Positions 25,184 through 63,389 of a stretch of 64,000 nt of DNA are shown here, one piece after another. The DNA comes from Candidatus Heimdallarchaeota archaeon (GTDB taxonomy: Archaea > Asgardarchaeota > Heimdallarchaeia > Hodarchaeales > Hodarchaeaceae), in assembly GCA_011364965.1 (NCBI GenBank), contig RDOB01000005.1, forward strand, positions 64,001 to 128,000, in the 5' to 3' direction. Numbering within the stretch: the stretch's first letter is position 1; each line of letters begins with the position of its first letter. Made by a program: the position numbers and the translations under genes. A model generated the notes under the pieces. It searched no databases. It worked only from the letters and a program-made list of their open reading frames with translations, and was not told where the DNA came from.

Positions 25184-26953
25184 CTATTCTATTGTCGCTC
25201 GGATTCTTATTAAGCCTGTTCCGATATTCTGCTGCTTTTGAATTATAAAATGCTTAATTTCACTCGTATTTCTGACATGGGGTCCTGTACAAATTTCTTT
25301 GGAAAAATCTCCAACAGAATAAACAGATACATTTTCTTCATATCGATCATCAAAGAAACCTAAAGCTCCTTGTTTTTTGGCTTCTGAAGGCTTCATAATT
25401 ACTTTCTTAACTGGTAACGCTTCCTGTATTTTTTGGTTAACAAGATCTTCAACTGCTTTCAGTTCTTCCCTAGAGAGTTTCTGTGAATGAGTAAAGTCAA
25501 AGCGTGTCCTTTCTGATGTGATATTACTTCCTCTTTGCTGAACGTGTTCACCTAATACCTCTCTCAAAGCTTGCTGAAGTAAGTGAGTTGCTGTATGTAA
25601 TCTTGTAGTTCTTGATGAATGATCAGCTAATCCACTTTGAAAAGTTCCTTCAGTTGCTTTCCGTGAGAGATCTCTATGTCCTTCAAATTCCTGTTTAAAT
25701 TTATCAAGATCGATTTCTAGATTTTTTTCAGCAGCTAATTCAAGAGTAATTTCCAATGGGAATCCGAATGAAGTAAATAATAAAAAAGCATCCTTTGCTG
25801 TAATTGTACCAGTCTGCGAATAGATTTGATTAAATTTTCTCAATCCTTTTCTTAAGGCAGTAGAAAATTTCTGCTCTTCTTGAGTTAACTGCTCAATTAT
25901 AAAGCTTTTATTATTTTCAAGTTCTGGGTAAATATTTTTGTAGGTTTCTATGACTATCTGAGCAAGAACTGGAAGAAAGCGTTGTTTGATATTTAATAAA
26001 TTTCCCTGTCTAATAATCCTTCTTATTAAACGCCTTAAAACGTATCCTTGCCCCAAATTAGATGGTGTTAAATGTTTATCGTCTCCTAGAATGAAAGTTG
26101 CAGCACGAATATGATCTGCTATTATATGGACTGATTCTATTTGTTCTGGGTTAGGATGGTCTATTTTCGTGAAATCTACTATACGATCCACTATTGGTTT
26201 AATCGTATCAATTTCGAAAATTGTCTTCATATCATTTAATACTGCCACAGTCCGTTCAATCCCCATGCCTGTATCAACATTTTTCTGTTTTAATTTTTCG
26301 TATTTATTCTCTGAAACTTTATTATAACTCATAAATACGTCATTCCAGATTTCAAAATACTTACCACAATTACAACCTGGTTGACAGCTTGAAGAGCATT
26401 TTTTCTTTCCTGTATCGAAAAACATTTCAGTATCTGGACCACAAGGCCCTGTTTCCCCAGCTGGTCCCCACCAATTATCTTCACGAGGTAGATAATATAT
26501 TCTTTTTTCAGGAATACCCACTTTTTTCCAAATAGATGCAGATTCCTCATCACGAGGAACCTCTTCATCGCCTTCAAAAACGGTTACAGAGATTTTATTT
26601 GGATCTAGGCCTAGCCAACGTGGATCCGTTAAGAACTCCCAGCTCATCTCTATTGCTTCTTCTTTGAAATAATCCCCTAAAGACCAGTTACCAAGCATTT
26701 CAAAAAATGTTAAATGAGTCGAATCTCCAACATCTTCAATATCACCTGTACGGATGCATTTTTGACAATTTACTAGGCGTTTACCAGACGGATGGGGTTC
26801 TCCAAGTAAAAATGGTTGCAGAGGGTGCATGCCAGCGGTCGTGAAAAGGACTGTAGGATCATTTTCAGGTAGTAAAGAAGCTGAGCTAATGATAGAATGA
26901 TTTTTTTCTTCAAAAAATTTCAAGTACAATGTTCTAAGCATATCGGAGTCCAC
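25184..26953 (-). CDS. alaS: Alanine--tRNA ligase, short form lacking the C-Ala domain
   Basis: LFTTAGMHPL, HLTFFEMLGNWS, GPCGPDTE, DTGMGIER, DHIRA; editing motifs HTATH and CTGPH. Confidence 0.95.
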   Translation of the reverse strand: MDSDMLRTLYLKFFEEKNHSIISSASLLPENDPTVLFTTAGMHPLQPFLLGEPHPSGKRLVNCQKCIRTGDIEDVGDSTHLTFFEMLGNWSLGDYFKEEAIEMSWEFLTDPRWLGLDPNKISVTVFEGDEEVPRDEESASIWKKVGIPEKRIYYLPREDNWWGPAGETGPCGPDTEMFFDTGKKKCSSSCQPGCNCGKYFEIWNDVFMSYNKVSENKYEKLKQKNVDTGMGIERTVAVLNDMKTIFEIDTIKPIVDRIVDFTKIDHPNPEQIESVHIIADHIRAATFILGDDKHLTPSNLGQGYVLRRLIRRIIRQGNLLNIKQRFLPVLAQIVIETYKNIYPELENNKSFIIEQLTQEEQKFSTALRKGLRKFNQIYSQTGTITAKDAFLLFTSFGFPLEITLELAAEKNLEIDLDKFKQEFEGHRDLSRKATEGTFQSGLADHSSRTTRLHTATHLLQQALREVLGEHVQQRGSNITSERTRFDFTHSQKLSREELKAVEDLVNQKIQEALPVKKVIMKPSEAKKQGALGFFDDRYEENVSVYSVGDFSKEICTGPHVRNTSEIKHFIIQKQQNIGTGLIRIRATIE

Positions 26954-27056: not shown

Positions 27057-30000
27057 TTACTTATTCTTCACATTATTAATCGAAATCGTGAGCTCTCTAG
27101 TTTTACTGTAAGGATCTTGAATGACCCAGTTTTTAGTAAATCCTTTTACTGTAGAAAAATCGAGAGACAAAGCGAGGACTTCTTCTTTAATCAAGTTTAG
27201 ATAGCGTTGTATCATTTCTTGAGTTTCATTGGTAATATTACTTATTCCCACACATATTTCGTCGTCATATGCGAGCTCCATATCTTTTCGCATTGATTGG
27301 ATTCGTCTAATTAAATCACGTACGAACCCTTCTTGTAGAAGTTCCTCACTAGGATTCATATTGAGGAATAGATCTCCATGAGTGAAAGAAGCCCCGCTAT
27401 ATCCTTCTCGTTCTGTAATTCGAATTTCTAAATCTTCTTTAGAAATTGTAACAATTTGTCCATTGATCTCAATTTCAAGTGTACCGTTTGCATTTAAGAT
27501 TTCAGCAATATCTTTTGCAGTTTGCCCTTTTTGTCCCCTCATCCAAGAAGCAACATCATTTGCATTCTTTTTAAATTTAGGGCCTAATTGTTTGAAATTT
27601 GGTGCAAAAGAAATCTCCTGAAATTCAACAGGATTATCAGAAAAAAGCATCTCTTTTACGTTCAACTCTTGAAGTAATAAATCTTTAAATGCAATTAATG
27701 CTTCTTTTCCTTGCGAATTAGTGACAAAGATAACCTGGGGAAGAGGCCAACGAGCTTTAAAGTCTTTTCTTGCTCTAATGGCCCTTCCGGTAGTTATCGC
27801 GTCACGTGAGATACTCACCAATGATTCTAGTTCTGGTTTTATAGCCTGTTCATTGACGTGGGGATAGGTTTCAAGATGTACACTTAATTTTCCATGACCT
27901 TGGCTTACAACAAGGTCTTGGTAAATTTTTTCACTAAGAAATGGTAAAATTGGAGCGATTACTTTGGATAAAGATTCTAATATCTCATATAAGGTAGAGT
28001 ACGCTGATTTTTTTGAAACAGTTAATTTTTTTTCCCAAAATCTCCTTCGAGACTGTCTGATCCATAAATTGGAAAGGTCTGCGTTCAAGAAATTTTTAAG
28101 AGCTTTTATAGCAAAATGAATTGATAAATCGTCATACCCTTGTTCTATTTCCTTTAATGTGGTATTATAACGAGAGAGTATCCATTGGTCAAGCAATGGT
28201 CTTTTAGATGGTGCAATTTGATATTTTTTTAGCTCTGGAGAGTAATTATCTAGATTTGCATAAGTGACAAAGAAAGATAATACATTCCAAAGCGGTAAAA
28301 TGAATTCTTTGAGACTTTCCTCTACAAGATTGTCACCAAATCGAACATCATTCCAAGTAGGTGTGCTAAAGAGAAGCCATCTGGAAGGATCAGCTCCATA
28401 TTCACTGAAAATATGCTGTGGATCACTGTAGTTTCCTTTTGATTTGGACATCTTCTTACCGTCTTCATCTTGAACATGCCCCATAGTTAAACACGTTAGA
28501 TATGCAGGTTTATCAAATACAACTGTAGAGATCGCTAAGAGAGAGTAGAACCATCCTCGGGTTTGATCGATAGCTTCAGTAATAAAATCAATTGGAAAAT
28601 GCTTTTCAAATTCTTCCTTGTTTTCAAAGGGATAGTGCCATTGAGCGAATGGTGCTGATCCAGAGTCATACCAGCAATCTATTACATACTCTTCTCGTTT
28701 CGCTAAAGATTTACATTTAGGGCATGTGACTTGTATTTTATCAACATCTGGTTTATGAAGAGAGAATCCTTTAGGTAAACCTCCTTTAGTCAAATTATGA
28801 AGCTCTTTACGGCTTCCCACAATGAATTCATGTCCCTTTTTGCAGGTCCAAATTGGAAGAGGAGTACCCCAATAGCGCGAGCGGGATAAAGACCAGTCTT
28901 TTAATTCATCTAGGAAATTACCAAATCGGCCATCTTTAAGGTGCTTGGGTTGCCATCTGATTTGTTGATTTAATTCTCGGATGCGATCACGGACTTGGCT
29001 CATACCAATAAACCAAGATTCCATGGCATAATAAAGAAGAGGGGAATCACATCTCCAGCAAAACGGATATGTATGGGTTATCTCTTCAACTCGAAGTAGT
29101 TTATTCTCTTCCTCTAATTTGTTTATAATAAGGGGGTCTGCTTTTTTGACATGTAAACCACCAAAATCAGGCATATCTGGATCAAAAGTTCCATTTTCAC
29201 GAACAGGATTTAGCATATCTACTCCTATTGCTTGACATAGCTCATAGTCTTCCACACCAAACGCAGGTGCACAATGAACTATCCCTGTTCCTTCTTCCAT
29301 TGAAACAAAATCCGCTGCAACAATGAAATGAGCTTTACCAGTCTTTTTGTTGGCTGTATAAGGGAAAAGAGCTTCATATTCTAAATCGAGGAGTGTTTCG
29401 CCAGGATATTCCTTGAGGATATCTTTTTTCTCATGAAAAACCCGTGGTAAGAGTTCTTTTGCAAATATGAGGATTTCACCTTCGTGATCGACTTCAATGT
29501 ATGCAGCTTCTTTATTAACAGCTAATACTAAATTGGAAAGTAAAGTCCAAGGAGTTGTAGTCCAAGCTAAGGCGTACTTATTTGTTTCTCCTTTTAATTT
29601 GAACTTGATGAATATACTCGGATCTTGGGTTTCCTGATATCCCTGGGCAACTTCATGAGAGGAAATAGGAGTTCCACATCTAGTACAGTAGGGGACAACT
29701 TTATACCCTTTGAATAATAATTTTTTATCATAAATCTGTTTTAACGACCACCAAACCGATTCAATATAATCTTCAGACATTGTGATGTAGGATTTGGAGA
29801 GATCAAGATGAAAACCAATTCTTTCAGACAGCTCTTCCCATTCTTTGACATAACGCATCACAGACTCTGGACACTTAGTAATGAACTTATCAATGCCATA
29901 TTCGATAATATCCTCTTTGCTTTCCAGACCAAGCTCCTTTTCAACTTCAATCTCGACAGGGAGTCCATGACAATCCCAGCCTCCTATTCTTGGTGTTACA

Positions 30001-30236
30001 TAGTGGCCTGTCATGGTTTTGTATCGTAGATAAATATCCTTTATTGCTCGAGTTAACGCATGGCCCATATGGGGGTGTCCATTTGCTGTCGGGGGTCCTT
30101 CCAAAAAAACAAAAGGTTTTTTGTCTTTAGATGCCTCCTGTATCTTGTTATAAATATCATTTTGTTTCCAAAATTCCAGTATGTGCATCTCTTCTTTCGG
30201 AAGGTTTGGTTTGGTTGGTAGATTCGGGAATTTCAC
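27057..30236 (-). CDS. ileS: Isoleucine--tRNA ligase (archaeal/eukaryote type)
   Basis: EGPPTANGHPHMGH, GWDCHGLPVE, WTTTPWTL, GTGIVH, SRSRYWGTPLP, DQTRGWFY, KMSKS. Confidence 0.97.
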   Translation of the reverse strand: MKFPNLPTKPNLPKEEMHILEFWKQNDIYNKIQEASKDKKPFVFLEGPPTANGHPHMGHALTRAIKDIYLRYKTMTGHYVTPRIGGWDCHGLPVEIEVEKELGLESKEDIIEYGIDKFITKCPESVMRYVKEWEELSERIGFHLDLSKSYITMSEDYIESVWWSLKQIYDKKLLFKGYKVVPYCTRCGTPISSHEVAQGYQETQDPSIFIKFKLKGETNKYALAWTTTPWTLLSNLVLAVNKEAAYIEVDHEGEILIFAKELLPRVFHEKKDILKEYPGETLLDLEYEALFPYTANKKTGKAHFIVAADFVSMEEGTGIVHCAPAFGVEDYELCQAIGVDMLNPVRENGTFDPDMPDFGGLHVKKADPLIINKLEEENKLLRVEEITHTYPFCWRCDSPLLYYAMESWFIGMSQVRDRIRELNQQIRWQPKHLKDGRFGNFLDELKDWSLSRSRYWGTPLPIWTCKKGHEFIVGSRKELHNLTKGGLPKGFSLHKPDVDKIQVTCPKCKSLAKREEYVIDCWYDSGSAPFAQWHYPFENKEEFEKHFPIDFITEAIDQTRGWFYSLLAISTVVFDKPAYLTCLTMGHVQDEDGKKMSKSKGNYSDPQHIFSEYGADPSRWLLFSTPTWNDVRFGDNLVEESLKEFILPLWNVLSFFVTYANLDNYSPELKKYQIAPSKRPLLDQWILSRYNTTLKEIEQGYDDLSIHFAIKALKNFLNADLSNLWIRQSRRRFWEKKLTVSKKSAYSTLYEILESLSKVIAPILPFLSEKIYQDLVVSQGHGKLSVHLETYPHVNEQAIKPELESLVSISRDAITTGRAIRARKDFKARWPLPQVIFVTNSQGKEALIAFKDLLLQELNVKEMLFSDNPVEFQEISFAPNFKQLGPKFKKNANDVASWMRGQKGQTAKDIAEILNANGTLEIEINGQIVTISKEDLEIRITEREGYSGASFTHGDLFLNMNPSEELLQEGFVRDLIRRIQSMRKDMELAYDDEICVGISNITNETQEMIQRYLNLIKEEVLALSLDFSTVKGFTKNWVIQDPYSKTRELTISINNVKNK

Positions 30237-30398
30237 AATTTACGCCTCTTTATGTCTTTAGACGGAGAATTGCATGCATTCTTACTTCAAAGATCTTTCC
30301 CAAAAAACGTTTGGCTAGTTTTGGAGGAAATTTCCTTATGTGATTACAAAAGGGAATCTGAATGTCAAAAATACAGCAATCTAAATATCCGTTCAAAC

Positions 30399-30548
30399 TC
30401 TCAAACTCCCAGGAAAAGTTGAGAAAATACTTTTTAAGCAAAAATAATTTGTGCGACAATAATAATGGCTCCTATGAGCTCATTGAAATTAGATTTGTCT
30501 AATTGCATATTGTCACATCATTTTAACAACTAGAGTTTCCTGGCCTCC
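30399..30548 (-). promoter_or_regulatory. Conserved structured leader element, copy 1 (upstream of ileS)
   Basis: Aligns without gaps to 62028-62177 (offset 31629), with identical 16-nt and 29-nt terminal blocks and complementary internal segments. Confidence 0.85.
30434..30508 (-). CDS. Ile-rich 24-aa putative leader peptide MQLDKSNFNELIGAIIIVAQIIFA
   Basis: Manual translation. Same length as the paralogue at 62063-62137, 12/24 identical, with synonymous changes. Confidence 0.75.
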   Translation of the reverse strand: MQLDKSNFNELIGAIIIVAQIIFA

Positions 30549-30554
30549 GGTTGA

Positions 30555-30571
30555 TTGAACAAATTGTTCAA
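30555..30571. promoter_or_regulatory. Perfect inverted repeat TTGAACAA-A-TTGTTCAA, candidate operator
   Basis: 8-1-8 palindrome between the TATA box and the leader element. Confidence 0.5.
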
Positions 30572-30573
30572 GC

Positions 30574-30590
30574 TCTTATAAGCTTTTGTT
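30574..30590 (-). promoter_or_regulatory. BRE/TATA promoter of the ileS leader
   Basis: Minus strand reads AACAAAAGC-TTATAAGA; TTATAA at 30576-30581 lies 27 nt upstream of the element, the same as in copy 2. Confidence 0.7.
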
Positions 30591-30718: not shown

Positions 30719-31717
30719 TTAAATGGCTCTCCATCCAATTCTTTGTTTAAAATCCAGATGTCTTACATTTTCAATTTTGAAATCGTACATTTTTTCAGCT
30801 TTTATACCCCACAATCCCAGTCTTCCATCAGTGGAGATGCGTATATCTTCTATAAAAGCTCTAAAAACATCCATTTTAGAAATTTGGTAAATCCCAGAGC
30901 TTAATACGAATGAAATACATCTTTGACTCGTTGAATCAACATCATAACGATAGAACCATTCATTTGCGATCAAAAAAGATAGAATATACCTTCCAGATGA
31001 TTCCAGTTCGAACGTTTCTGGATAAGCTTTTGGTAATAAGATTTTAAACCAATTTAAGTTTCTTTTTGCTAATGCAATAGAAATTAATTTAGCATTTTTC
31101 AAGGTAATGGCAGAGATCGCTTCAAAGTTGTTGCTAGCAGTCTCTAAGTCTCCATTCTGTAGAAATAATTCCCCCAGAAGGCAAAATTTTTCATCTTCTG
31201 AATTGAACTTATAATCACCAGCTTTAATTGCAGCAATTTCATCTTCTATATTTAGAATTACATCCCGTTCAAAAAATCTATTTTTCTTTTGAGAAACAAG
31301 CTTCTCTATTTGCGGATTTGCTTTCAAATCGGATTGACCTTGCGTATAAAAACTAAAAAGAATTTCTGCAAACGAATCAAATTCTTCTTCACTTAATTGC
31401 TCGGGTTTCTCATGTTTAATTTCAGTTAGATCATATACCTTTTCTCGCTCCATAATCTCCATGAAAAATAAGTCATTCTCCTCTAGCGATGTTTTTTCTA
31501 TTAAAAAAGCATGAATTCTCTTAACCTGAGTGAAATAGGTCGGAATAGATACTGTTCCCGCTCTAAACTTTGACTCTTGACTTAAAAACCAGTTTTTCCA
31601 TTCAACCCACTCATTTTCCGTAATATTTGGAATATCAGAAGATGAAAATAAATCTACTAAGATTTTACTTGCAATTTTCAATGATTCGAGGTCTTGTGTA
31701 ATGGTTATCGGATTCAT
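30719..31717 (-). CDS. Hypothetical protein (possible TPR-like segment)
   Basis: 332-aa ORF; LLGELFLQNGDLETASNNF resembles a TPR helix pair. Confidence 0.6.
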   Translation of the reverse strand: MNPITITQDLESLKIASKILVDLFSSSDIPNITENEWVEWKNWFLSQESKFRAGTVSIPTYFTQVKRIHAFLIEKTSLEENDLFFMEIMEREKVYDLTEIKHEKPEQLSEEEFDSFAEILFSFYTQGQSDLKANPQIEKLVSQKKNRFFERDVILNIEDEIAAIKAGDYKFNSEDEKFCLLGELFLQNGDLETASNNFEAISAITLKNAKLISIALAKRNLNWFKILLPKAYPETFELESSGRYILSFLIANEWFYRYDVDSTSQRCISFVLSSGIYQISKMDVFRAFIEDIRISTDGRLGLWGIKAEKMYDFKIENVRHLDFKQRIGWRAI

Positions 31718-60981: not shown

Positions 60982-61665
60982 GTGAGGAAAATGTGTTTCA
61001 TGCAAGCTGAATCACTAACAGTGCTATTATTTACGCTTTGGGGAACACAACACTCTATACTTGCATCAAACAGGGTAAAAAAACGAGCAGGATTTGATCC
61101 TCTAGATCAAAAATATAGAATCGGTTTCATTGTGATCTCTCTCCTTTCTTTTGCGTTTCTTGAGTCAATCATAAATATATATCTTATTCCTGAGGGAAAA
61201 TTCGTCTCCTCAATAATAGATATGTCTATCCTATCCGATCTAATTCTTTATTATATCCTAACTATTACAGGATGGATTATGGCAATTGGCGCATTTATTC
61301 AAGCAGGCCCATTGACTTTCAGTGGCTTAAAAGGCGAAAAAAGAGCTCCTATTAAATTTAATGGATTCTATCGGTTTTCTCGCCATCCTATTTATTTTGG
61401 AGTGATGTTAGCTACTCTTGCATTAATGTTGACAGTATCTAATAGTGTTTTACTAGTAAAGTATTTAAGTTTTCTAATTTATTTTGTAATTGGGGCAAAA
61501 TTAGAGGAGCGAAGGCTTACTAATGTATTAGAAGGATATGAAGAAATGCTAAGTCGACCATTCTTATTTCCGTATCGAAAAGAGCACATTAGGATTCTCT
61601 TTGGTAGAGAAAGGAAGGAGAAGGTGGAAAAAAACCATAAAAAAATGGATTATTCAATCCAGTAG
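60982..61665 (+). CDS. ICMT/PEMT-like (MddA/NnrU-like) membrane methyltransferase
   Basis: QHSILAS, GFYRFSRHPIYFG, GAKLEERRL; TM helices. Confidence 0.8.
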   Translation: MRKMCFMQAESLTVLLFTLWGTQHSILASNRVKKRAGFDPLDQKYRIGFIVISLLSFAFLESIINIYLIPEGKFVSSIIDMSILSDLILYYILTITGWIMAIGAFIQAGPLTFSGLKGEKRAPIKFNGFYRFSRHPIYFGVMLATLALMLTVSNSVLLVKYLSFLIYFVIGAKLEERRLTNVLEGYEEMLSRPFLFPYRKEHIRILFGRERKEKVEKNHKKMDYSIQ

Positions 61666-61865
61666 TATTCAATTTTGTCTCCTTTAACTTCTTCCTCAGG
61701 GATTATAGCGATGAGATCATGGTGTAATTGGTGATGGATTAAATAACATGTTTCGTGAATATATTGCGTACACTGGTCACATTGAATAATAAGGACAAAT
61801 CCTGTCGTATCCTGTTTCAATAATAACCTGTTACAGACAGAACAGTATCGGATATCTCTACTCAT
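61650..61865 (-). CDS. 71-aa PHD/RING-like zinc-finger protein
   Basis: CSVC...CDQC...HETC...HH; GGTGA ribosome-binding site upstream. Confidence 0.75.
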   Translation of the reverse strand: MSRDIRYCSVCNRLLLKQDTTGFVLIIQCDQCTQYIHETCYLIHHQLHHDLIAIIPEEEVKGDKIEYYWIE

Positions 61866-61874
61866 CGCATCACC

Positions 61875-62003
61875 CTAACTTACTGTTTGAGAATTCACAG
61901 GAATCTGACTATTACTTCTTATTTGCAACTCTTCTTCTTTTCTTTTACAATTTACGCATTCCTTATTGGGATTAAGGACAGTTCCACAGACATCACAAAA
62001 CAC
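61875..62003 (-). CDS. 42-aa C4 zinc-finger microprotein (not in ORF track)
   Basis: GTG start after AGGAGG; MFCDVCGTVLNPNKECVNCKRKEEELQIRSNSQIPVNSQTVS. Confidence 0.7.
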   Translation of the reverse strand: MFCDVCGTVLNPNKECVNCKRKEEELQIRSNSQIPVNSQTVS

Positions 62004-62027: not shown

Positions 62028-62177
62028 TCTCAAACTCCCAGGAAAAGTTGAGAAAAAGTTTCTTAGACAAAAATATATTGTGTAACAATGATGATGACAC
62101 CCATAAGCCAATGGGCATTGGGATTTATAGATTGCATATTGTTACACCATTTTCAGAACAGGAGTTTCCTGGCCTCC
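62028..62177 (-). promoter_or_regulatory. Conserved structured leader element, copy 2
   Basis: Ungapped paralogue of 30399-30548. Confidence 0.85.
62063..62137 (-). CDS. Ile/Val-rich 24-aa putative leader peptide MQSINPNAHWLMGVIIIVTQYIFV
   Basis: Manual translation; paralogue of 30434-30508. Confidence 0.75.
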   Translation of the reverse strand: MQSINPNAHWLMGVIIIVTQYIFV

Positions 62178-62202
62178 TGTATAATAGAATAATAACTGGA
62201 GT

Positions 62203-62219
62203 TTTTATAAGGTTTTTTC
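62203..62219 (-). promoter_or_regulatory. BRE/TATA promoter of leader copy 2
   Basis: Minus strand reads GAAAAAACC-TTATAAAA; TTATAA at 62205-62210, same spacing as copy 1. Confidence 0.7.
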
Positions 62220-62318: not shown

Positions 62319-63389
62319 TTAAATTATTGTTTCAATCCATCCATATGGATCTTCTTTTCGGCCATACTGGATATCAATTAGATTTGTGTATAAGAGCTTA
62401 GAAATTGGGCCCACAGTCGATTTGTTGATCATATAAGACTTATCTTGATAATAAAGACTACCTATTGGAGCCACAGAGGCTGCAGTTCCTGCAGCAAAGC
62501 ATTCAGTTAGAGAACCATTGCCAATGGATTCTATCACAAAATCGATGCTTAAAGCTTTCTCGCGAACATAATATCCAGAATCATTAGCTAGAGTAAGAAT
62601 ACTCTCACGAGTAATCCCTGGTAAAATAGTTCCAGACAATGGGGGAGTGAAAATTTCATCATCTATTATGAAGAAGATATTCATTGCCCCTACTTCTTCT
62701 ATATAACGTTTATGGATGGCATCCAGCCATAAAACTTGGTTGAATCCTTTTCTTGTTGCTTCAGCAGTTACAAGCAAGCTCGCAGCATAATTACCTCCAG
62801 TTTTTACATTTCCCATCCCTCCTGGAGCTGCTCGAATATAATTTTCACTAACATAAATATTGACACATTGAAATCCTTCAGGGAAATAAGGTCCTGATGG
62901 TGACAAAATGATGTAAAAAATGAAATCTTGTGCAGTTCTAAGTCCAAGCATGGGAGTAGTGGCAATCATAGTTGGTCTTATATAGAGTGACGATCCTAAT
63001 TTCTTAGGGGCCCAATCTTTTTCCAGTTTAAGTAAAGTTATCAATCCTGTTCGATACAGCTCTTCATCAATTTCAGGCATCACTAAACGTCGTGCTGAAG
63101 AGTTGAAACGTTCGATATTTTTATCTAGACGGAAAAGGTTCAGGTTTCCTTCAGGTGTTCGATATGCTTTTTGACCTTCAAAAATAGTCTGACCGTAATG
63201 TAAGCAAACTGCAGAGGGATTTAACTCAATATTATCATATTTCACTATTCTAGGAATCTTCCATTGATCTTCTTCATAGTTCACAATAAACATTCTATCA
63301 GTAAAAACTTGGCCAAATCCTAACTCTTCATCCGATGAATATTTTACCTTTAAATCCTCAAGCGATAATGATTCAATTGTAATTTCCAA
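62319..63389 (-). CDS. ilvE: Branched-chain amino acid aminotransferase
   Basis: LGFGQVFTDRM, LHYGQTIFEGQKAY, LYIRP, KTGGNYA, EEVGAMNIF, ILPGITRES, GTAA. Confidence 0.95.
   Translation of the reverse strand: MEITIESLSLEDLKVKYSSDEELGFGQVFTDRMFIVNYEEDQWKIPRIVKYDNIELNPSAVCLHYGQTIFEGQKAYRTPEGNLNLFRLDKNIERFNSSARRLVMPEIDEELYRTGLITLLKLEKDWAPKKLGSSLYIRPTMIATTPMLGLRTAQDFIFYIILSPSGPYFPEGFQCVNIYVSENYIRAAPGGMGNVKTGGNYAASLLVTAEATRKGFNQVLWLDAIHKRYIEEVGAMNIFFIIDDEIFTPPLSGTILPGITRESILTLANDSGYYVREKALSIDFVIESIGNGSLTECFAAGTAASVAPIGSLYYQDKSYMINKSTVGPISKLLYTNLIDIQYGRKEDPYGWIETII

Follow-up and report, generated by a model that had tools for sequence, protein, structure and literature searches.

A genus-confined leader RNA with a conserved small open reading frame upstream of zinc-finger and tRNA-synthetase genes in Hodarchaeales

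Bacteria control many genes of amino-acid metabolism through short translated leaders. In the leader-peptide attenuators of ilvGMEDA, ilvBN, thr, his, trpL and pheST, a short ORF enriched in cognate codons and overlapping an RNA helix lies between the promoter and an amino-acid or synthetase gene. Arrest leaders (TnaC, SecM, MifM, ErmCL/ErmBL, and uORFs like the arginine attenuator peptide) act through the nascent peptide; TnaC has 24 amino acids and an essential Trp. T-box riboswitches (RF00230), which are bacterial only, are structured leaders of synthetase genes, ileS and tyrS included, that are retuned via a codon-sized specifier and depend on essential tertiary loop contacts. The type I toxin mRNAs of the hok/sok kind combine a small ORF, a helix-sequestered ribosome-binding site and a long-range lock between the 5' and 3' ends. 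Literature searches found no description of an archaeal leader-peptide, arrest-peptide, T-box-like or synthetase-leader system, and to our knowledge very few cis-regulatory RNAs are known in archaea.

The present study concerns a locus in a Candidatus Heimdallarchaeota genome (GCA_011364965.1) of the Hodarchaeales, the archaeal order closest to eukaryotes. The window, that is, the whole stretch of DNA analysed, comprises 64,000 nt of contig RDOB01000005.1. A sequence-only reading of it had proposed that an unannotated 24-codon ORF between a TATA box and ileS is the leader peptide of an isoleucine-sensing attenuator and that the surrounding element recurs at 62028-62177. The ORF, its six Ile residues, the TATA box, the repeat and the listed codon differences between the two copies are all present, and the recurrence of the element in 17 further congeneric genomes and five metagenome contigs shows that it is not due to chance. 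The attenuator interpretation itself is partly supported by the results below. The element is a previously undescribed folded RNA of about 170 nt, confined to one genus and possessing its own BRE/TATA promoter, and the small ORF indeed lies inside a promoter-proximal leader. The copy upstream of ileS is designated copy A and the second copy is designated copy B (Table 1).

Table 1. Positions of the features of both leader copies and their surroundings in the window
Feature	Position	Strand	Basis or remark
ileS (isoleucine--tRNA ligase)	27057..30236	(-)	TIGR00392, 922 bits vs cutoff 621
GTAAGAATGCATGCAA, diverged counterpart of the GCAAATGTAYAA box	30271-30286	(-)	comparison with relatives
T6 run	30302-30307	(-)	between leader and ileS; a T4 run also lies there
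Decayed zinc-ribbon gene start, copy A side	30325..30392	(-)	pairwise alignment with copy B
T5 run in the decayed zinc-ribbon start	30367-30371	(-)	28 nt after P3
P3 hairpin, copy A	30399..30424	(-)	starts 9 nt past the stop codon; 9-nt loop 30408-30416 = UUUCCUGGG
Small ORF, copy A, 24 codons, peptide MQLDKSNFNELIGAIIIVAQIIFA	30434..30508	(-)	sequence read, family alignment
T5 run in the last codons of the copy A small ORF	30440-30444	(-)	
Ile codons of the copy A small ORF	30458-30466 and 30443-30448	(-)	
P2 3' arm, copy A, UUGUCGCAC	30451..30459	(-)	codons 17-20 of the small ORF
P2 5' arm, copy A, GAUGUGACA	30511..30519	(-)	Shine-Dalgarno-like (GUGA/GGUG); 11 nt before the small-ORF AUG
P1, 5'-terminal hairpin, copy A	30530..30550	(-)	loop 30536-30544 with invariant CCAGGAA(A)
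BRE/TATA promoter, copy A (AAAAGC TTATAA)	30576..30587	(-)	TTATAA = 30576-30581
PHD-like zinc-finger ORF, 71 aa	61650..61865	(-)	usual second gene behind the leader
Zinc-ribbon ORF, 42 aa, CxxC-x9-CxxC	61875..62003	(-)	DZR similarity weak
Leader copy B	62028..62210	(-)	TATA 62205-62210, P1 62159-62179, small ORF 62063-62137, P3 62028-62053
ilvE (branched-chain aminotransferase), upstream of copy B	62319..63389	(-)	NF009897, 451 bits

Homologues were sought by BLAST in relatives and then with a covariance model built from 11 sequences. The leader is present in 18 of the 22 genomes of one Hodarchaeales genus (17 of 21 congeners and this one), a lineage of Hodarchaeota/Heimdallarchaeota MAGs; the covariance model detected it in none of 61 genomes from elsewhere in the class. 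It is single-copy in all 17 other carriers; only the genome studied here has two copies. A pattern scan of JGI metagenomes gave six further matches, five of them distinct from the genome set, and the family alignment comprises 24 members: copies A and B, the sequences of the congeneric genomes and those of the five metagenome contigs. A second covariance model, made from all 24 members, found nothing new within the genus. When all GTDB species genomes and the JGI metagenomes were scanned by pattern, the same lineage alone was returned, apart from chance matches (four bacterial ones among the genomes and two unrelated contigs among the metagenomes), and an Rfam cmscan at E <= 10 returned only chance-level matches to unrelated families. 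One weak covariance-model match (L066) was discarded as spurious; it falls within a coding region, on the opposite strand.

The consensus fold contains three compatible helices, P1, P2 and P3, and a complementarity between two loops. Across the 24-sequence alignment, 89.5% of cells are paired, versus 36-52% after sliding the partners; both sides have changed in 15 pairs, and the covariation score was reached by none of 500 shuffles. Compensatory changes affect eight of the nine pairs of P1, the stem of which is weaker in copy A (4 bp, a mismatch and 1 bp), and four of the six pairs of P3 (4-5 covarying), with two more covarying pairs (UA 14, AU 5) in an extension of P3. The long-range helix P2 hardly varies, a single pair being compensatory (GC 22, AU 2); it joins G(G/A)UGUGA(C/U), located 11 nt before the AUG, with UGUCACAC. 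The loops of P1 and P3 (CCAGGAA and UUCCUGG, the latter within the 9-nt family sequence UUUCCUGGG) are invariant, more so than the helices. They are complementary over 7-8 Watson-Crick pairs that, though outside the model, are 93.5% paired, and both flanking pairs covary (CG/UA/UG and AU/GU/UA). From these patterns we infer that the loops form a kissing-loop or pseudoknot lock and that the 5' arm of P2 sequesters the ribosome-binding site of the small ORF.

The geometry of the element is strict. The BRE/TATA box (AAAGCTTTTAAC-like) is situated about 24 nt before the first helix with the same spacing in all homologues, and the transcription start of copy A, predicted about 24 nt downstream of this box, falls at the foot of P1. 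All length variation is within the P2 loop. Although the ORF varies in length, the first base of P3 comes 9 nt past the stop codon in 23 of the 24 members and 8 nt past it in the remaining one. Neither mutually exclusive terminator and antiterminator hairpins nor a hairpin-plus-U terminator is conserved in the 24-member fold, so the transcription attenuation envisaged by the sequence-only reading lacks its structural pair. Partition-function models with a ribosome mask placed at the stop or at the Ile codons gave no consistent change in the accessibility of the downstream Shine-Dalgarno sequence, the loop-loop pairing being left out of these thermodynamic models. The 3' arm of P1 was considered as an anti-Shine-Dalgarno element and rejected, as only some clades (UCUCCUU) agree with it and the clade with CUUUUGUC does not.

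Frame 0 of the small ORF is open in all 24 members. Stops occur in 24 and 18 of the 24 members in the other two sense frames and in 11, 24 and 24 in the three antisense frames. Among the 179 distinct codon states of the variable N-terminal columns there is no stop (P about 8.5e-5). The ORF measures 20, 23, 24, 25 or 26 codons, so that all indels are multiples of three; the stop codons TAA, TGA and TAG interchange at one place, and the Gly codon varies in its third base (GGT, GGC, GGG). Judged by this comparative evidence, the small ORF is genuine and translated.

The family consensus peptide, MK..IA..MWF.GNGIIVTQPYFK, has no transmembrane helix. The conserved residues are Lys2, a single Trp (23/24), a Gly, and then [I/L]-I-V-T-x-x-Y-F-x ahead of the stop; in the columns of this C-terminal motif, Phe is kept in 24 members, Thr in 23 and Ile in 23. 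The I-V-T codons constitute the 3' arm of P2, and the conservation of the motif may therefore be partly nucleotide-level. The same overlap affects a further point of the sequence-only reading, which had taken the synonymous differences between the two copies as selection on the peptide: the changes are there, but several of them lie in P2 and are compensatory (GTC GCA -> GTT ACA). Phe is encoded by TTT throughout, and the preceding codon invariably has T as its last base; together they give an invariant T4-T5 run. The spacing from Trp to the C-terminus, 10 to 16 residues, is unusual for arrest peptides.

Copy A encodes six Ile among 24 residues, with the codons ATT ATT ATT GTC and then ATT ATT ahead of the stop. 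Across the rest of the family the number of Ile is 1-5 per peptide, with a single near-invariant Ile column, and the III and II runs are limited to the two copies of this genome. The family thus keeps the ORF, in 24 of 24 members, but not the Ile run, which cannot be regarded as a hallmark of the element.

The usual genomic context of the leader is a pair of small zinc-finger genes. About 10 nt past P3, 22 of the 24 members have a GGAGG followed by a zinc-ribbon ORF of 39-48 aa (MFCETCGTVL...CVNC), and in most of those 22 a PHD-like zinc-finger ORF of 67-86 aa comes next. Comparison of the members shows leader, zinc-ribbon gene and PHD-like gene as the ancestral order. When the downstream genes are tabulated, ileS and tyrS agree with the expectation of an amino-acid-related target, and the 22 zinc-ribbon genes do not. 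The leader and the zinc-finger pair co-occur in 17 of the 18 leader genomes; four genomes (G002, G007, G009 and G014) have neither the leader nor the PHD-like protein. The PHD-like family is restricted to this lineage, with only five full-length clusters in a set of 1.8 billion representative proteins. Neither the zinc-ribbon nor the PHD-like proteins reached a family cutoff in Pfam, NCBIfam or PADLOC, and a word-based homologue search recovered the query alone.

Both mini-proteins, found in the window at 61650-62003 (-) and in L047, L048, L059 and other loci, are genus-confined. The zinc ribbon has the pattern CxxC-x9-14-CxxC, and the second protein has a PHD/C1-like finger pattern, C-x2-C...C-D-x-C...H-E-x-C...H-H...H. 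The genes flanking the cassette vary by species; in about five lineages PLP-dependent amino-acid enzymes are among them (class I/II aminotransferases, a threonine-aldolase-like lyase, ilvE in the present genome and a PALP enzyme). The most divergent members, L063 and L064 (genomes G001 and G016), have small ORFs of 26 codons and a zinc-ribbon gene behind the leader without the PHD-like ORF; a PALP (cysteine-synthase-like) gene is located about 230 nt downstream on the same strand.

The 2.97-Mb assembly contains two copies of the element only. The repeat at 62028-62177, on the same (-) strand, aligns with copy A without gaps over 150 nt at 78% identity (E = 1.4e-27), and its peptide MQSINPNAHWLMGVIIIVTQYIFV has 12 of 24 residues in common with MQLDKSNFNELIGAIIIVAQIIFA. 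Copy B precedes a zinc-ribbon gene and not a gene of branched-chain amino-acid metabolism; ilvE lies upstream of it. In the pairwise alignment the homology of the two copies extends from the TATA box to about position 30325, which indicates that the duplication took in the start of the zinc-ribbon gene. This gene has decayed on the copy A side: GGAGG has become GGATA, GTG has become CTG, frame-breaking indels have appeared and only about 60% identity is left.

The leader itself has not decayed. Copy A departs from the family at 4 of 53 conserved columns against a neutral expectation of 13.2 (P = 0.001), and copy B departs at 5 of 53; the two copies agree at 46 of the 53 conserved columns versus only 35 of 60 variable ones. 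This indicates that copy A is functional and under purifying selection, a point in favour of the sequence-only reading. Taken together, the alignments show the ileS copy as a duplicated cassette in which the zinc-ribbon gene decayed and the leader was kept. Three conserved residues, Trp, Thr and Tyr, are missing from the peptide of copy A. Its six Ile are the family maximum, but the paralogue, which heads zinc-finger genes, already carries five; the net gain of copy A is one, and its Ile richness is mostly inherited.

Genome G015 (CP070760.1) provides a second case of relocation. Its sole leader copy is intact (152 bits) and ends 80 nt before tyrS (NF006330, 368 bits); the leader is not followed by a zinc-ribbon ORF, and a search of this genome did not recover the PHD-like gene. 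The peptide MKSPIASYSWLKGYDFYVTQTYFV contains four Tyr versus 0-2 elsewhere, and the Ile column kept in 23 of 24 members (alignment column 19) is Tyr in this tyrS-linked copy only. From the leader to tyrS there is no run of T5 or longer. The tyrS gene still has a promoter-like box as well as the usual AAGGTGA ribosome-binding site. Between the leader and tyrS, a 5-codon mini-ORF (ATG TCG AAA ATA AGG TGA; L054:1725-1750) extends into the region of the GTG or ATT start of the gene.

Both relocated copies thus immediately precede a tRNA-synthetase gene and share its orientation. The chance of two such relocations is roughly 5e-5, assuming about 21 synthetase genes among about 2900. This adjacency is a stronger argument than the codon shift: the change of codons towards the cognate amino acid (Ile before ileS, Tyr before tyrS) amounts to one case each and is suggestive. 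The re-use of the leader before ileS and tyrS with shifted codons suggests that the supply of charged tRNA may be one of its inputs.

The stretch between copy A and ileS is of importance for any influence of the leader on ileS. Upstream of ileS, 18 relatives have a conserved palindrome, CCCTAAAG...TTTAGGGG, which is degenerate in this genome, and in most of these relatives a TATA-like box, GCAAATGTAYAA, stands some 36 nt ahead of the ileS GTG. Here the search for a separate ileS promoter yielded a diverged remnant of the relatives' box, together with the T5 and T6 runs (Table 1). Oligo-T is the signal of intrinsic termination in archaea; for this reason read-through from copy A into ileS would be partial at best. 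The copy A leader and ileS may be co-transcribed.

It is proposed, tentatively and with somewhat less than even confidence, that the leader is a translation-coupled cis-regulatory element. P2 would pair the ribosome-binding site of the small ORF with its codons 17-20, and ribosomes would have to open this helix to start. A ribosome at the last codons or at the stop would have its leading edge at the base of P3. A ribosome at a stop codon protects about 9-10 nt beyond it, as known from toeprint and footprint sizes; since this footprint equals the 9-nt spacer, termination or a pause there would pry open P3 and the loop-loop lock. The melting of P3 would then alter the fate of the downstream RNA: in the usual copies it would affect initiation at the GGAGG situated some 10 nt beyond P3, and in the synthetase-linked copies the fate of the transcript, which for ileS means read-through or stability of the RNA extending into the gene. 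The dwell time at the end of the ORF would depend on the peptide or on the codons, as the C-terminal motif and the single Trp suggest. The conserved C-terminal peptide may be what is expected of an arrest-type leader, with stalling predicted, and the replacement of Ile by Tyr before tyrS may be what is expected of a hungry-codon sensor; either or both of these readings may apply.

The evidence bearing on isoleucine sensing is divided. The gene downstream of copy A is ileS, its peptide has six Ile of 24 in III and II runs, the family Ile column is replaced by Tyr solely in the tyrS-linked copy, and the cassette is often flanked by genes for amino-acid (PLP) enzymes. The Ile codons are located at the entry of the 3' arm of P2, where a paused ribosome would hold P2 open. 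However, 22 of 24 members head zinc-finger genes, the paralogue without a link to ileS already has five Ile, the conserved Trp, Thr and Tyr-Phe favour peptide sequence over codon content, and ileS is preceded by T runs and promoter remnants. It seems unlikely, therefore, though by no means negligible, that pausing at scarce Ile-tRNA raises ileS expression by whatever mechanism. Classical terminator/antiterminator attenuation of ileS transcription is far less probable and hardly credible, as no alternative hairpins or hairpin-plus-U terminator were found; also, as far as we know, termination by archaeal RNA polymerase has no hairpin dependence, which counts against attenuation. Copy A might instead be an autonomous gene for a dual-function small RNA or micropeptide, ending at the T5 run and leaving ileS without its control. 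Its own promoter and 5' hairpin fit such a gene, as does the T5 run that has arisen, 28 nt after P3, within the remnant of the zinc-ribbon start; the RNA blocks have stayed conserved though no Shine-Dalgarno sequence or ORF follows, and ileS retains the remnant of its own promoter box. Against this, the usual arrangement is unambiguously that of a 5' leader, with P3 about 10 nt from the GGAGG of the next gene, both relocated copies are placed directly upstream of, and codirectional with, tRNA-synthetase genes, and the leader of G015 has no T5 or longer run before tyrS. The autonomous gene is about as probable as isoleucine sensing.

Another possibility is a ligand for the P1/P3 loop-loop fold, either a metabolite or a protein such as the zinc-finger products (autoregulation), with a small ORF that is merely regulated or coupled. 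The invariance of the CCAGGAA and UUCCUGG loops above that of the helices and the compact three-helix fold would agree with this, as would the zinc-finger pair in 17 of 18 leader genomes and the lack of the PHD-like gene in the four leaderless ones. Loop-loop pairing explains the invariance equally well, however, no Rfam family matched, the leader of G015 is intact without a PHD-like gene or a zinc-ribbon ORF, and the strict 9-nt spacing of stop and P3 speaks for the involvement of translation; such a binding RNA is thus improbable. The view that copy A is a decaying non-functional duplicate or a MITE-type mobile repeat has been largely refuted and retains very little probability. The ends of the element do resemble inverted repeats (CCAGGAAA and TTTTCCTGG), the adjoining zinc-ribbon gene is dead, and the peptide is without Trp, Thr and Tyr. 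But the ORF of copy A is intact and 49 of 53 conserved columns are kept versus about 40 expected under neutrality (P = 0.001), and a repeat element is ruled out by the single copy in each of the 17 other carrier genomes and the covariation of the helices.

Taken as a translation-coupled leader, the element most resembles the leader-peptide and arrest-peptide devices in its mode of action. Like the bacterial attenuators, it has a short ORF behind a promoter and overlapping an RNA helix, and cognate codons are enriched in both synthetase-linked copies. The downstream gene fits the pathway of the putatively sensed amino acid in two cases (ileS here, tyrS in G015) and is a zinc-ribbon gene in the other 22. 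Unlike them, it is archaeal, has no exclusive terminator and antiterminator hairpins, conserves a peptide sequence and not a codon run, and precedes zinc-finger mini-proteins in nearly all members. Because neither a conserved codon run nor alternative hairpins were found, the leader falls outside the bacterial attenuator class. With arrest leaders it shares a length of 20-26 aa, a conserved C-terminal motif with a Trp, and a fixed distance from the stop to a downstream structure or ribosome-binding site; it differs from them in the variable spacing of its Trp and in stalling that is predicted here, and its loop-loop architecture has no counterpart among them.

The predicted loop contacts of the leader and its place before ileS and tyrS recall T-box riboswitches, but it possesses no Stem I, specifier loop or T-box sequence and has a translated ORF. 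It is not a T-box, since a match to RF00230 is absent. A T-box-like pairing of the tRNA 3' end with the UGG of the P3 loop was rejected, as the base after UGG (G/A) misfits the A73 discriminator. Nor is the leader a type I toxin mRNA, for all its likeness to hok/sok in the small ORF and in the proposed helix-sequestered ribosome-binding site and long-range 5'-3' lock: its peptide is not a membrane helix family-wide, the element is single-copy, nothing points to an antisense RNA gene, and further genes always follow it.

The result is a new family of RNA plus small ORF of a general kind that is already known. With 24 members, covarying P1 and P3, a conserved small ORF and a fixed geometry, this compact RNA is directly testable in vitro. 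Should the expression of ileS and tyrS depend on the small ORF being translated, a ribosome-mediated sensing device of their own would have evolved in Asgard archaea, and such devices would spread via duplication of a cassette followed by retuning of its codons. It would then be the first archaeal counterpart of the bacterial sensors of amino acids and tRNA charging, with a retunable codon (Ile before ileS, Tyr before tyrS) and with the collision of a ribosome against a kissing-loop lock, in place of a terminator hairpin, as its read-out, a proposition we consider unlikely at present. Even if the zinc-finger pair alone were regulated, Hodarchaeales would still have, in this leader, a structured RNA that is new and carries a translated upstream ORF.

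Some further features were observed around ileS. The palindrome or hairpin CCCTAAAG-(T-rich)-TTTAGGGG of the relatives (L076-L092), which is located about 40-95 nt upstream of ileS and immediately precedes the GCAAATGTAYAA box, is kept even where the upstream gene differs, and it could be an operator or a terminator. Upstream of copy A, at window positions 30719-31717 (-), there is an ORF of 332 aa that matches no family in Pfam, NCBIfam or PADLOC. About 100 nt after ileS, on the same strand, an alaS-like ORF of 589 aa follows (25184-26953 (-); tRNA-synt_2c and tRNA_SAD), and the two represent tandem tRNA-synthetase genes, although 589 aa looks short for AlaRS.
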